Shown one piece after another: positions 5,785-14,544 of a stretch of 42,197 nt of DNA. The notes beneath the pieces were generated by a model that had not been told where the DNA came from, searched no databases, and saw nothing but the letters and a program-made list of their open reading frames with translations. Both the position numbers and the translations under genes were made by a program. Source of the stretch: Escherichia phage altidsur; sequence record MN850568.1; one strand, 5' to 3'. The stretch's first letter is position 1. Each line of letters opens with the position of its first letter.

Positions 5785-6090
5785 ATGGCATCCGTGAACA
5801 AGCAGCTCGACGGGCTGCACCGGATGCTGGTGGAGTATCTGTCCGACCGCTTGGCCGACGCTCGTAGGAAAGATGAACACGGTAATATCATCGAACCTAT
5901 GGCGGCGGCTGAGCTGTCCGTACTTCGCCAGTTCCTGAAAGACAACGGTATTCAGGCTGACAAAGACCACGCAGATGACCTGCTGGCGCTGCAAGAGCAA
6001 CTGAATAACGAAAAGACCGAGGCAGGTCGTAAGGATATTATGACCGCTGCCATTAACTCAATCGCAGAAGATAGTGGGATGATGCACTAA
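5785..6090 (+). CDS. Terminase small subunit (DNA maturase A-like), 101 aa
   Basis: Small ORF immediately upstream of and coupled to the large terminase, similar in size to T7 gp18; RBS-like GGAGA upstream. Confidence 0.55.
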   Translation: MASVNKQLDGLHRMLVEYLSDRLADARRKDEHGNIIEPMAAAELSVLRQFLKDNGIQADKDHADDLLALQEQLNNEKTEAGRKDIMTAAINSIAEDSGMMH

Positions 6091-9223: not shown

Positions 9224-9575
9224 CATCCACTCGCGTATGGGTGCAGTGGAGGCTCGTATGCAATCCGTAGAACTTCGACTCGACAAGCACGAGGTACAAA
9301 TCGCCACCCTTGAAAAAGGCGACGCTGCAATGCTGGCCAAGCTCGCGGAGAACGATACCCGCTGGCAGACCGTTCAACAGCAGCTCCTTGTGGTTGAGCA
9401 AATTCAGGACATTCAGAAGACTATGAGCCATATCGGTAAGCTGTTTACGGCGGCGGCTCACGCTGTCAAATGGTGTCTCTTAACCGCATCCCTGTGTAGC
9501 GGTATCTACTTAGCGATTAAGGCTGGCGACCTCACGGCTCTCCAGTCCTTTATCACAACGATTATGGGGATGTAA
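9192..9575 (+). CDS. Lysis-cassette membrane protein with N-terminal coiled coil and single C-terminal TM helix (holin/antiholin/spanin-like candidate)
   Basis: ORF between the lipoprotein and the endolysin; heptad-like N-terminus, one hydrophobic helix (WCLLTASLCSGIYLAI); TAATG coupling to the endolysin start. An alternative start at 9237 would avoid overlap with the upstream gene. Confidence 0.5.
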   Translation: MTEAKKEPTPNIHSRMGAVEARMQSVELRLDKHEVQIATLEKGDAAMLAKLAENDTRWQTVQQQLLVVEQIQDIQKTMSHIGKLFTAAAHAVKWCLLTASLCSGIYLAIKAGDLTALQSFITTIMGM

Positions 9576-10111
9576 TGACTAACTTTGAAATCTGTATGCG
9601 GTTCACCGGGCTGGCAGAAGGCGGTTACGCCAACCTGCCCGGAGACACCGGAGGGGAAACGAATCATGGAATTAGTGACGCTCGTGATGGAAAGCTGGAT
9701 GGTAGAGCTTGCGGTGTCCCTACTGGGCTTGGCGGCACTATTTGTGTGCCTATCCGCAACCTCACCAAAGCGCAAGCCGAAGCAATCTATCGACGGGACT
9801 ACTACAGCCCCATCCGAGGTGACGAGCTTCACCCTGCGATTGCATGTGCCGTGTTCGACTACGGCGTTAACTCAGGTGTCTCCCGTGCGGCGAAAGCTCT
9901 ACAGCGGGTATGCGGCGTTGCACAAGACGGGGTTATTGGCCCTGCTACCGTGGCAGCAGCCAAACGTCTGGAACCTCACTCCGCAGCAGCAGCCATCTGT
10001 GACCTTCGTATTGCGTTCCTAAAGGCTTCTACAGCCCCGACAATCGTTCGGTATAGGGATGCCTTGGTAGCTCGTGCAAAACGCTGTAGCGACTACTGTG
10101 CGACGCTGTAG
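9575..10111 (+). CDS. Endolysin, GH108-type muramidase with C-terminal peptidoglycan-binding-like region, 178 aa
   Basis: N-terminal motif LAEGGYANLPGDTGGETNHGIS and downstream IYRRDYY match the GH108 signature (EGG...DPGG.T..GI...YxxDYW) read by eye; no N-terminal TM/SAR segment. Confidence 0.8.
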   Translation: MTNFEICMRFTGLAEGGYANLPGDTGGETNHGISDARDGKLDGRACGVPTGLGGTICVPIRNLTKAQAEAIYRRDYYSPIRGDELHPAIACAVFDYGVNSGVSRAAKALQRVCGVAQDGVIGPATVAAAKRLEPHSAAAAICDLRIAFLKASTAPTIVRYRDALVARAKRCSDYCATL

Positions 10112-10320
10112 GGGCTATCGAAAGCTGGAGCATTGAACAGGCCGTGGGGAGCAATACCCCCGGCTTGAAAATTGCATGTTTATAGTTGCCCCTCCCTCGA
10201 CCCAAATGACCGCGCGTACCCCCATGACGTGTGCGCGGATTAGCCTCGCGACGTGCGCGATATTGCCTCGCGTGTGCTGCGCGGCGCGTCAAGAGGATTG
10301 CCTGCGTGCGGTATAGCTCG

Positions 10321-10710
10321 TGCGTGTCGCGTTTCACTATCGCCGCGCGGTGCTGTCCTGCTGGCTGGCTGTGTGCCTGCTGTGTGGGCTATCGGTGGCG
10401 GTGTGGTGCTGTCCTATTGGGGACGCTCTGCGCTGGCTGCGTGGTGCTGCTGGCTGCGCGTGGTCGGTCGGGTATCTGTCTCTTTTCGTCGTGGTGTGTG
10501 GTGCTGGTGTGTAGCGGTGTGCGGCGTGGTGCTGCCGTCCTGCTGTGTGGTGTGCTGGTCTACTGTCTGCGCCTGCCAGCTCTGCGCGTCATGCTCTGCT
10601 ACTGTCTCTTACTGTCCTACTGCCTTCACTGTCTGCCGTCTGTCAGTCCTACGGTCTGCCATCCGTCATCCGTTCGGCGCTCGCTTGTTTCGGCTGCGCC
10701 GCGCTCGCTC
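10321..10710. other. A-depleted (G/T/C-only) strand-asymmetric tract; candidate genome-terminus / terminal-repeat-associated region
   Basis: By manual count roughly twenty A residues in ~390 nt on the + strand. Because every stop codon contains A, all three + frames stay open, which produces the overlapping Cys/Arg-rich ORFs in the track. Sits between the last late gene and the early promoters. Confidence 0.6.
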
Positions 10711-10730
10711 TGCGTATCTAGCGATACTAT

Positions 10731-10752
10731 ATCACTATAGACACTTTCATAA
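10731..10752 (-). promoter_or_regulatory. Copy of the 22-bp phage promoter-like motif ATGAAAGTGTCTATAGTGATAT, inverted; + strand reads ATATCACTATAGACACTTTCAT
   Basis: Reverse complement is identical over 22 bp to 31211-31232; contains the CTATAG core reminiscent of the CACTATAG core of T7/SP6-type promoters. Confidence 0.45.
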
Positions 10753-10757
10753 TTATC

Positions 10758-10856
10758 TAATGATTACAGTAACTTATAACCTATCTGATAACGGTATTCT
10801 ATCCAGTGTTATGATTATCTAATCAAACTTTAATCCTAATGATTACAGTAACTTAT
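10758..10856. repeat. AT-rich direct repeats (20-bp TAATGATTACAGTAACTTAT at 10758-10777 and 10837-10856, plus duplicated ATTATCTAA)
   Basis: Exact 20-bp duplication 79 bp apart, read directly, immediately downstream of the A-depleted tract and the inverted promoter-like motif. Confidence 0.6.
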
Positions 10857-10877
10857 CACTTTTCTTGAAAATAATAC

Positions 10878-10907
10878 TTGCCAATCTGTTTTGGTTTATG
10901 CTGTAAT
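10878..10907 (+). promoter_or_regulatory. Host sigma70-type promoter candidate (TTGCCA-N18-TGTAAT)
   Basis: -35-like TTGCCA at 10878-10883 and the same TATGCTGTAAT -10 box as the next two promoters. Confidence 0.35.
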
Positions 10908-10984
10908 TCATCTCGCCGGACAACACAGCGTTAACGTGTTGGACGGTGTAGGACGGTAACACTGCTCTTTAACAATCTGGTGTG

Positions 10985-11013
10985 TTGACAAGGCAAGCTC
11001 ACTATGCTGTAAT
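10985..11013 (+). promoter_or_regulatory. Host sigma70-type early promoter (TTGACA-N17-TGTAAT)
   Basis: Perfect -35 TTGACA at 10985-10990, 17-nt spacer, TATGCTGTAAT box; one of three identically spaced copies upstream of the early region. Confidence 0.55.
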
Positions 11014-11121: not shown

Positions 11122-11150
11122 TTGACAGGATGAAATGAGTATGCTGTAAT
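11122..11150 (+). promoter_or_regulatory. Host sigma70-type early promoter (TTGACA-N17-TGTAAT)
   Basis: TTGACA at 11122-11127, 17-nt spacer, TATGCTGTAAT box at 11140-11150. Confidence 0.55.
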
Positions 11151-11201: not shown

Positions 11202-11230
11202 TTGACACGCTGAATACGATGTGATGTAAT
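11202..11230 (+). promoter_or_regulatory. Host sigma70-type early promoter (TTGACA-N17-TGTAAT)
   Basis: TTGACA at 11202-11207, 17-nt spacer, GATGTAAT box at 11223-11230. Confidence 0.5.
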
Positions 11231-11687: not shown

Positions 11688-12080
11688 ATGTACCGTATCT
11701 ATGCAAGCGCATATCGTCAGGGCAACGCTGAATGTGTTAATCTGGCGCTTCATTGCAAGGCACTGCGAACGGTGCAGGATATGTTCGGAGTGGTTCCGGT
11801 CACACTGACAGGCAAGTTCGACAATGCGTACGAGTTAAGCATGGTCTTTCCTGTCGATGGAATCTACGAAATCAGGCAGGCTGTTAAGCTGTTCTGTAAA
11901 GCATTCGAACAGGACTGCATCATGGTAGTGACCAAAGATGATGATGCAATCTTCATGGATTCACCATATCCGGGCAAGCCTGCTGGCAAGTTCGTCAGCA
12001 AGACTGAGGCCGAAATGGAAGCCGGGCAGCACACCGCTTGGACTTACGATGGTGAACAATTTTGGGTAGTGGAGGCGTAA
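11688..12080 (+). CDS. Early hypothetical protein, 130 aa
   Basis: First ORF after the ~450-nt leader; GGAGA RBS 8 nt upstream of the ATG. Confidence 0.55.
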   Translation: MYRIYASAYRQGNAECVNLALHCKALRTVQDMFGVVPVTLTGKFDNAYELSMVFPVDGIYEIRQAVKLFCKAFEQDCIMVVTKDDDAIFMDSPYPGKPAGKFVSKTEAEMEAGQHTAWTYDGEQFWVVEA

Positions 12081-13106: not shown

Positions 13107-13130
13107 AAGCCAGTGTCAAGGCGCTGGCTT
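13107..13130 (+). promoter_or_regulatory. Intergenic RNA hairpin (AAGCCAG-loop-CTGGCTT), part of the repeated hairpin + GGCAAT..TGCC module
   Basis: 7-bp perfect stem with 10-nt loop, followed by GGCAATTCTGCCCCAACC, RBS and ATG. Confidence 0.4.
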
Positions 13131-13168
13131 TATGGCAATTCTGCCCCAACCTATTCGGAGTATTATCC

Positions 13169-13869: not shown

Positions 13870-13893
13870 ACTGCCTCGTTGCGACGGGGCAGT
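13870..13893 (+). promoter_or_regulatory. Intergenic RNA hairpin (ACTGCCTCG-TTGCGA-CGGGGCAGT) of the repeated module
   Basis: 9-bp stem with one G-U wobble and the same TTGCGA loop as 13461-13484, followed by GGCAATCATGCC box. Confidence 0.4.
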
Positions 13894-13928
13894 GCGGCAA
13901 TCATGCCCCAACCTACTGAGGATTTAAT

Positions 13929-14483: not shown

Positions 14484-14507
14484 CAGCCCATCCATAGCGG
14501 TGGGCTG
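14484..14507 (+). promoter_or_regulatory. Intergenic RNA hairpin (CAGCCCA-loop-TGGGCTG) of the repeated module
   Basis: 7-bp perfect stem with 10-nt loop, followed by GGCAATCATGCC box, RBS and ATG. Confidence 0.4.
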
Positions 14508-14544
14508 TAGGGCAATCATGCCACAACTAACTGAGGGTTTTACC

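Follow-up and report, generated by a model that had tools for sequence, protein, structure and literature searches.

In Escherichia phage altidsur (sequence record MN850568.1), past the last late gene and ahead of the early promoters, the plus strand runs for some 390 nt, from 10321 to 10710, almost without A. What is this tract, and what keeps A out of it? The window analyzed here is the whole 42,197-nt stretch of that record. An original prediction, made from the letters alone, had remarked that T7-like phages carry terminal repeats and concatemer-processing signals at such a position. The location is correct, as the endolysin gene (the last late gene) occupies 9575-10111 and the predicted early promoters start at 10878. 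We read the tract, with a probability of about 0.72, as the non-coding core of the left-end or concatemer-junction module of a Bonnellvirus genome. The feature is a terminal repeat and concatemer-junction region, a type already known in T7-like phages.

Composition of the tract

The tract counts 18 A, 113 C, 135 G and 124 T (4.6% A, AT skew -0.75, 64% GC), in agreement with the about twenty A estimated earlier by hand. Finding 18 or fewer A in 390 nt has a binomial probability of 1.4e-23. Over all 42,197 bp, the 390-nt segment with the lowest A content is 10316-10705 (4.6% A, z = -6.3; genome mean 22.9%), and the next-lowest count outside the tract region is 63/390. A maximal-segment scan returned exactly 10316-10715, and the five longest A-free runs of the genome (38-51 nt) all lie inside 10340-10715. 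No comparable minimum was found for any other base on either strand in the whole-sequence composition scan. The AT skew is -0.49 over 10401-10800 and elsewhere mostly small (about -0.15 to +0.3). This profile of composition and skew, which had been suggested as a check, marks 10316-10715 as a unique outlier. The asymmetry is thus local, as had been claimed, being the genome's unique extreme, but the flanks are not quite normal: the left flank is already A-reduced (15.5%) from about 10230, and the right flank is unusually AT-rich.

The reiterated units described earlier are real, with 16 copies of GCTG, 17 of CTGC, nine of GTGG and eight of CTGTC. Homodinucleotides are avoided (lag-1 autocorrelation z = -7.7); TT, CC and GG are strongly under-represented, and TT occurs 12 times versus 40 expected. 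Both strands fold more weakly as single strands than GC-matched windows (residual z about +3). The tract and its internal zones are as follows.

10316-10715, plus strand (T-depleted on the minus strand): A-depleted tract, 400 bp, 4.5% A
10488-10560, plus strand: hypervariable G/T-rich zone of GTG, GCTG and GGTGCTG units, with indels between relatives
10561-10715, plus strand: C/T-rich zone, consisting of a loose (T)ACTGTCY-type array (10561-10660) and then a conserved block
10716-10745, plus strand: conserved TCTAGCGATACTATATCACTATAGACAC at the right edge of the tract, present as a single genome copy

Upstream of the candidate pause signal discussed below, the plus strand is G/T-rich with GGTGCTG and GCTGG units. 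The (T)ACTGTCY array comprises five to seven loose copies at a spacing of 9-10 bp and scores only 35-47 in a tandem repeat finder, which reported arrays of period 9 and 18; repeat families D2, D5 and D11 lie in the C/T zone.

Predicted left genome end and terminal repeat

Judged by sequence identity, the altidsur genome belongs to the genus Bonnellvirus of the Autographiviridae: the region is 96.6% identical to that of Escherichia phage aldrigsur and 80-93% identical to those of more than 13 other members of the genus. The published identity between altidsur and aldrigsur is 97.1% (Petrzik et al. 2021). Genomes of this group were deposited as permuted assemblies, and end mapping is absent from the corresponding papers (Olsen et al. 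2020; Petrzik et al. 2021); in the literature searched, no published end mapping was found for any Bonnellvirus.

The ends can be placed through J8-65, the Bonnellvirus type phage, whose record has a repeat_region annotated at both ends, the two ends sharing exactly 259 bp. Its left repeat boundary (TCGACCCGAAGG) aligns to altidsur 10197, where the repeat begins at the homologous TCGACCC within the CCTCCCTCGACCC block, invariant in 12/12 aligned relatives. Its right boundary aligns to about 10460, within the tract. Starting from 10197, altidsur carries a box of the form TCGACCC...CCCCCAT with the C-run starting at nt 23. Across the left ends of T7, T3, SP6, K1-5, phiKMV, LKA1, JG068, CB5, LIMElight, KP34, J8-65 and altidsur, 12/12 start with TC or CC and have CCCC(C)-(A/G)-T beginning at nt 23-29 (T7 and T3 start with TC and have CCCCCAT at about nt 25). 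The left end at 10197 is predicted from homology with J8-65, and the terminal box in the 11 other left ends is independent support. For the right boundary, the J8-65 annotation gives about 10460 and analogy with SP6, K1-5 and JG068 gives 10474. We firmly hold, from these alignments, that the left genome end would lie at about 10197 and the right boundary of the direct terminal repeat (DTR) at about 10460-10474.

10197-10229, plus strand: left-terminal box TCGACCCAAATGACCGCGCGTACCCCCATGACG, with 10197 as the inferred first virion base
10197 to about 10460-10474, no strand assigned: predicted DTR of about 264-278 bp, by homology

With the boundaries mapped from J8-65, the tract straddles the right boundary of the repeat and is not itself the repeat. 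On this alignment it would consist of the right ~145-160 bp of the DTR, the invariant GGGTATCTGTCTCTTTT, and about 230-240 bp of unique left-end DNA. The terminal-repeat and concatemer-signal region proposed originally is supported by the J8-65 boundaries and by GGGTATCTGTCTCTTTT at the junction position, although 'next to' the terminus understates the placement. Two points weigh against these positions: the altidsur ends are located by homology only, and the method behind the J8-65 annotation is unstated in its paper (PMC4179555). If correct, the placement tells where about 15 Bonnellvirus genomes, deposited as assemblies permuted at arbitrary points, are likely to have their physical ends (about 10197 and about 10460-10474), a modest practical benefit.

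The same box (TCGACCC...CCCCCGTAGGGGG) is also present in a 43-kb contig, IMGVR_UViG_2228664000_000004 (locus L034, 3609-4200), whose endolysin is 78% identical. The locus has 600 bp with 9-17% A and a duplicated CAATCTCTTTTGC about 300 nt from the terminal box, which appears to show drift of the boundary signal.

A candidate pause signal at the repeat boundary

10469-10487, plus strand: GGGTATCTGTCTCTTTT, candidate class II-type pause/termination signal of the phage RNA polymerase, from position and conservation

An invariant TATCTGTCTCTTTT lies just right of the repeat boundary derived from J8-65. In the alignment, GGGTATCTGTCTCTTTT is unchanged in 11 close relatives though both of its flanks vary. 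It occurs once in the altidsur genome and holds the sole T4 run of the tract, in a stretch that otherwise avoids TT. The layout is TATCTGTC followed by TCTTTT (10473-10486), with the T-run 6-8 nt downstream of the core. According to nearest-neighbor energies, the T-run of TCTTTTC is the site within DTR and tract where an RNA:DNA hybrid has the lowest stability compared with the duplex, and its hybrid-minus-duplex energy falls in the top 0.04% genome-wide. The signal is 0-13 nt away from the predicted repeat boundary.

The equivalent position in T7, T3, SP6, K1-5 and JG068 concatemer junctions is occupied by TATCTGTT, the class II pause signal. We checked the sequences: the T7 repeat spans 1-160 and is followed by ATCTGTT at 161, and the T3 repeat spans 1-231 with ATCTGTT at 232. 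The SP6 and K1-5 repeats, derived from the record ends, are 174 and 234 bp and end ...GGGCTA/TCTGTT, whereas that of JG068 ends ...GGGCA/TCTGTA (the slash marks the boundary). Zhang and Studier reportedly proposed in 2004 that polymerase paused at the T7 junction recruits the prohead-terminase, and are said to have given (C/T)ATCTGT(T/A) as the T7 class II consensus. The 216-bp JG068 repeat was mapped by Sanger run-off (PMC3765740). In T7, ATCTGTT is the class II pause/termination signal of the RNA polymerase; termination takes place 6-8 nt downstream, aided by a U-run, and a natural copy is located at the concatemer junction's right end (bioRxiv 10.1101/2021.01.11.426313; bioRxiv 10.64898/2026.02.12.705533). 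From this analysis we regard GGGTATCTGTCTCTTTT, fairly firmly, as a putative concatemer-junction pause signal, which would extend the T7 rule of a polymerase pause signal at the right edge of the repeat to another genus.

Several observations speak against an exact equivalence. Any change in ATCTGTT abolishes termination by T7 RNA polymerase (bioRxiv 10.1101/2021.01.11.426313), and the altidsur T-ATCTGTC matches that core at 6/7 positions, its preceding base T fitting the A/C/T rule; the altidsur cognate polymerase differs from that of T7. Against the longer consensus given above, the altidsur signal scores 7/8. J8-65 and Lidtsur carry an ATCTAT core (ATCTATC), which in J8-65 sits 13 nt past the annotated repeat end, and a distant IMG/VR relative carries ATCAATCTCTTTT (as ATCAATCTCTTTTGC, twice). 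ATCTGT is absent in phiKMV, LKA1 and KP34; together with LIMElight, these phages have only a TGCCT...TTTTGC-type element after the repeat. Read across these sequences, the boundary element is general and the exact ATCTGT core is not, with only the CTCTTTTGC-like part general in the phiKMV/LKA1/KP34 clade. An IMG/VR scan for the signal yielded one further Bonnellvirus and two chance matches. In altidsur itself, an exact class II consensus (AATCTGTT, then TT) is also found at 10883-10890, within the spacer that belongs to the first early promoter (TTGCCAATCTGTTTTGG...). Relatives do not conserve it, and its occurrence is probably fortuitous.

Taken as a junction module, the region might work as follows. 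In concatemers, phage RNA polymerase arriving from the late genes would cross the single repeat copy and pause or terminate at TATCTGTC and the TCTTTT behind it. The paused complex may then mark the junction for the prohead-terminase, as proposed for T7. The terminase would cut both the TCGACCC box and the repeat's right boundary, and duplication of the repeat would follow. The rest of the tract would be a fast-evolving spacer of short G/T and C/T motifs that puts a distance of about 680-1030 bp between the entering end and the early promoters.

A-depletion across relatives and T7-like phages

Comparison across relatives, the other check suggested at the outset, showed that low A is kept: in the alignment, the homologous segment has 3.7-7.7% A in 12/12 relatives. 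The tract is at the same time the most variable intergenic part, with 56% invariant columns and 146 gapped columns, and A accounts for 25 of about 340 base states in the variable columns. The list below gives, for altidsur and 11 other phages, the number of A in each consecutive 100 nt counted from the left end.

altidsur: 16, 6, 3, 4, 8, then 30
J8-65: 10, 6, 5, 8, 12, 25
phiKMV: 9, 10, 8, 4, 7, 8, 5, 11, 20
LKA1: 8, 13, 2, 6, 15, 29
CB5: 7, 11, 13, 14, 12, 22
LIMElight: 17, 8, 7, 15, 19
KP34: 19, 8, 13, 18
SP6: 13, 14, 17, 23
K1-5: 14, 22, 13, 24
JG068: 17, 15, 26
T7: 26, 15, 41
T3: 25, 29, 33

The left 400-800 bp are A-depleted in J8-65, LIMEzero, phiKMV and LKA1, and more weakly so in CB5, LIMElight, KP34, SP6 and K1-5. 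The depletion starts about 30 nt inside the repeat, passes the repeat end and stops at the host-type promoters; in phiKMV, LKA1 and J8-65 the A-poor zone extends 150-400 bp past the annotated repeat. A-poor left ends persist beyond alignability, with 4-11% A over 800 bp in phiKMV, 2-15% over 500 bp in LKA1 and 6-14% over 500 bp in LIMEzero, whose record does not start at the terminus. Extreme one-directional A-depletion is seen repeatedly in T7-like phages that are only distantly related and whose sequences here have turned over completely. We found no description of such a clade-wide depletion of the entering end in the searchable literature. An endolysin-anchored scan of 45 viral loci found a large A-poor segment beside the gene only in the four closest relatives; the unrelated phages with a similar endolysin in that scan had none.

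In T7 and T3 the elements follow one another as in altidsur: after the last late gene come the terminal repeat, an ATCTGT-type signal at the repeat's right edge, a short-repeat array (a loose one in altidsur), an AT-rich region, several strong promoters of host type, a boxA-like GCTCTTTAACAA and an anti-restriction first gene. They differ in composition, as they are not A-poor (15-45% A per 100 nt) and the T7 repeat is G/T-rich in its right half only, and in the motifs used: CCTAAAG versus the unrelated ACTGTCY in the short-repeat array, and TATCTGTT versus TATCTGTC as signal. An altidsur counterpart of the T7 phiOL could not be confirmed, since the candidate phage-polymerase promoter at 10718-10745 (...ATCACTATAGACAC) is a single genome copy and is unsupported. 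By its position, the loose (T)ACTGTCY array would correspond to the SRL in T7 and to the CCTTAGT arrays of SP6 and K1-5. In the latter two (Molineuxvirinae), TATCTGTTC(G/C)TTTGCTCC straddles the repeat end and resembles the altidsur TATCTGTCTCTTTTCG, a short-repeat array follows the signal, and the first 300-400 bp show a moderate depletion of A (13-24%). However, this depletion is much weaker, the array motif is a different one, and the sequences cannot be aligned.

Closer in composition are the phiKMV-like phages, with repeats of 414 bp (phiKMV), 298 bp (LKA1) and 277 bp (LIMElight). Their ends, including those of LIMEzero and CB5, show strong to extreme A-depletion from about nt 30 to the first host promoters, and a T-run element (TGCCTCTTTTGCC or similar) stands directly after the repeat; the phiKMV nick consensus is absent from altidsur. 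J8-65 has the homologous region, 5-12% A over its first 500 bp and CTATCTATCTTTTTT after the repeat, but only 62% identity in the tract, with many indels.

Possible reasons for the A-depletion

Our preferred explanation, weakly held, is that the depletion is a selected, 'inert' three-letter spacer. An A-free strand, with its T-free complement, could carry no -10 hexamers, ATG, stop codons or Shine-Dalgarno sites, and would also be free of A/T-containing palindromic or Type I restriction sites and of stray ATCTGT signals. A three-letter strand would fold poorly as single-stranded DNA, and local motif duplication and slippage could then perpetuate the composition. The explanation fits a genome purged of every GATC and CCWGG. 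Observations that it leaves unexplained weigh against it. An inert spacer predicts no strand preference, yet 9/12 left ends have less than 15% A in some 300-nt stretch and T-poor left ends number 0/12. The GC-only palindromes GCGC and CGCG are enriched rather than avoided, the AT-rich 500 bp next to the tract enter the cell just as early, and T7 and T3 manage without such depletion.

The 42,197-bp genome has no GATC (about 165 expected) and no CCWGG on either strand, a sign that Dam/Dcm-type or matching restriction sites are very strongly avoided.

It is possible, though we put it forward tentatively, that the A-poor first 400-800 bp are a selected, strand-specific and functionally required trait of the Autographiviridae other than T7 and T3, from Bonnellvirus to phiKMV and more weakly SP6. 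A selected three-letter end might serve as a signal-free, restriction-proof entry segment, or might offer a structure-free, non-primable strand for end annealing or repeat duplication. On that view the end would be more than filler and more than conserved sequence. If selection does maintain the depletion, it would represent an unrecognized constraint on first-entering DNA or on concatemer processing.

Alternative explanations

The tract could instead code for genuine Cys/Arg-rich proteins, in line with the annotation of several GenBank records. Long open frames do exist across it (10231-10740, 169 aa; 10253-10822, 189 aa; 10320-10514 / 10545-10721), and features called 'hypothetical protein' overlap the tract in Kc261, forsur, HHU8, ROV85 and Lidtsur. 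However, the three frames are open simultaneously, and its composition leaves the tract without stop codons on either strand. Indels between close relatives measure 1, 7, 9, 10, 11, 19, 20, 21 and 29 nt and break the frame, and the four tract open reading frames (ORFs) tested had no matches in Pfam or PHROGs. Given these indels and the lack of family matches, the ORFs are spurious, as the original prediction had argued, and a coding role is so improbable that it can practically be set aside; several 'hypothetical proteins' in Bonnellvirus records can be flagged accordingly. Equating the tract (about 10316-10715) with the terminal repeat itself is likewise very unlikely to be right. In its favor, the phiKMV repeat is A-poor throughout, and homology is what positions the altidsur repeat; yet the J8-65 repeat begins 120 bp upstream of the tract, at the family-conserved box, and ends mid-tract, and the zone outruns the annotated repeat in phiKMV, LKA1 and J8-65 as described above.

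More serious, but still rather improbable, is that the tract is functionless filler, generated by slippage and local duplication of A-free seed motifs and possibly by strand-biased mutation at genome ends. The tract varies more than any other zone of the region, has indels of about 10, 20 and 29 bp and contains many short direct repeats; the remaining A are no more conserved than the other bases (10/18 versus 215/382 invariant), and variable A positions are mostly A/G. Filler would hardly account for depletion of equal direction and degree in unalignable left ends from hosts that differ in GC (phiKMV, LKA1, LIMEzero, CB5), ending where the early promoters start. Nor does simple motif expansion predict the homodinucleotide avoidance (as in the deficit of TT), and there are conserved blocks within the tract. 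We give less credence still to an asymmetry that serves a single-strand or replication intermediate, either as a T-free bottom strand that cannot be primed or folded and leaves a clean 3' tail for end-to-end concatemer annealing, or as an R-loop or transcript at the pause site that primes DNA synthesis (a secondary origin, compare T7 phiOL/phiOR). The consistent orientation among the 12 phages and the weak self-folding of both strands agree with such a role, as does the scarcity of GAC (bottom-strand GTC, the T7-type primase site), with 2 in 486 nt versus 20 top-strand GTC; this count relies on T7-type primase specificity, which may not be that of altidsur. Hybrid-minus-duplex energies, on the other hand, equal the genome mean in the G/T zone and are unfavorable in the C/T zone, so the tract is not R-loop-prone. 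The depletion continues past the repeat, where annealing is not needed, and T7, as read from its sequence, carries strong primase sites on this strand close to the left terminus. The junction module remains our preferred reading, with the three-letter spacer weakly held.

The 'hypothetical proteins' annotated over the tract are located at L002 3054-3593 (Kc261 QQM15444), L011 1483-1998 (forsur_28), L012 1607-2155 (HHU8 XMR00743), L008 1447-2013 (ROV85 gp21, gp22) and L021 1054-1461 (Lidtsur gp55), the coordinates being those of each locus; frame-breaking indels and the lack of homologues indicate that they are artefacts of stop-free composition.

Other identities of the tract were considered and rejected. 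No Rfam RNA family matched it at E <= 1. The GCTG and GTGG units had suggested a Chi cluster, but 10100-10800 has no exact GCTGGTGG and two one-mismatch variants. R-loop-prone sequence upstream of the pause is not apparent, as nearest-neighbor hybrid-versus-duplex energies there are at the genome mean. A G-quadruplex finds no basis in 30 GG versus 48 expected and almost no G3 runs. Helical phasing for protein binding (~10 bp) was dismissed, as autocorrelation at lags 9-11 showed no significant periodicity in the tract; many tract indels are nonetheless about 10 or 20 bp. Sites resembling the localized nick sites of phiKMV (CGACNNNNNCCTACTCCGG) occur only as 3-mismatch matches at chance level, with none in the tract. 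General palindrome avoidance does not hold, with GGCC and CCGG absent but GCGC and CGCG enriched 2.4-fold, and the remaining A are not specially conserved functional positions, being 56% invariant like the other bases.

Other sequence elements of the region

All altidsur genes lie on one strand. The elements around the tract are listed below.

9575-10111: endolysin, last late gene
10112-10196, plus strand: spacer from the endolysin stop to the predicted left genome end, from the alignment of 12 relatives
10147-10161, plus strand: small hairpin GGGGAGCAATACCCC in this spacer
10746-10877, plus strand: AT-rich region right of the tract, containing a 30-nt direct repeat
10757-10786 and 10836-10865, plus strand: the two copies of the 30-nt direct repeat
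10878-10907, 10985-11013, 11122-11150 and 11202-11230, plus strand: four predicted sigma70-like early promoters, read from the sequence
10963-10975, plus strand: boxA-like TGCTCTTTAACAA, the exact rrn-type boxA sequence, between the first and second early promoters
11688-12080: SAMase homologue, first gene

In the alignment of 12 relatives, the spacer contains a conserved CCCGGCTTGAAAATTG...CCTCCC leading to the cut site. CCCGGCTTGAAAATTG...CCTCCCTCGAC is also present in a contig (L035) whose endolysin is 66% identical, and LIMEzero has a divergent version of this block (CTAAAAATTG...GGCCTCCCTCGAC). The predicted early promoters have the form TTGACA/TTGCCA, N17-18, TGTAAT, the last of which falls outside the consensus-scan rule. 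The early leaders of T7 (813), T3 (781), SP6, K1-5, LKA1, CB5 and one IMG/VR relative likewise contain GCTCTTTAACAA, which suggests that boxA is a widely conserved host antitermination element of early transcripts.

A second direct-repeat pair (10742-10761 / 10804-10823) shares the AT-rich stretch before the first early promoter. Both pairs (CTAATGATTACAGTAACTTAT... and ...ATTATCTAAT) are conserved in relatives and might act as a binding site for a protein or as a secondary origin. Alternating purine-pyrimidine runs of at least 8 nt reach their highest density in the genome at 10163-10462 (21% of bases versus a mean of 3.6%; for example ACGTGTGCGCG) and are longer in J8-65 (GCGCGTGCGCGTGCATG), so that the left half of the predicted repeat may be prone to Z-DNA. 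Eight exact Chi octamers are present elsewhere, at 5826, 7215, 8483, 21451, 34634, 36574, 37418 and 40787, all on the plus strand and none on the minus strand; this orientation would be readable by RecBCD entering from the right genome end. Finally, a 39-nt element, GGGCAGTGCGGCAATCATGCCCCAACCTACTGAGG, occurs in three copies (13125-13163, 13887-13925 and 14502-14540), each a small hairpin followed by a ribosome-binding site and ATG. The hairpin at 10147-10161 is similar, and the 39-nt elements could be processing sites, terminators or phage promoters.

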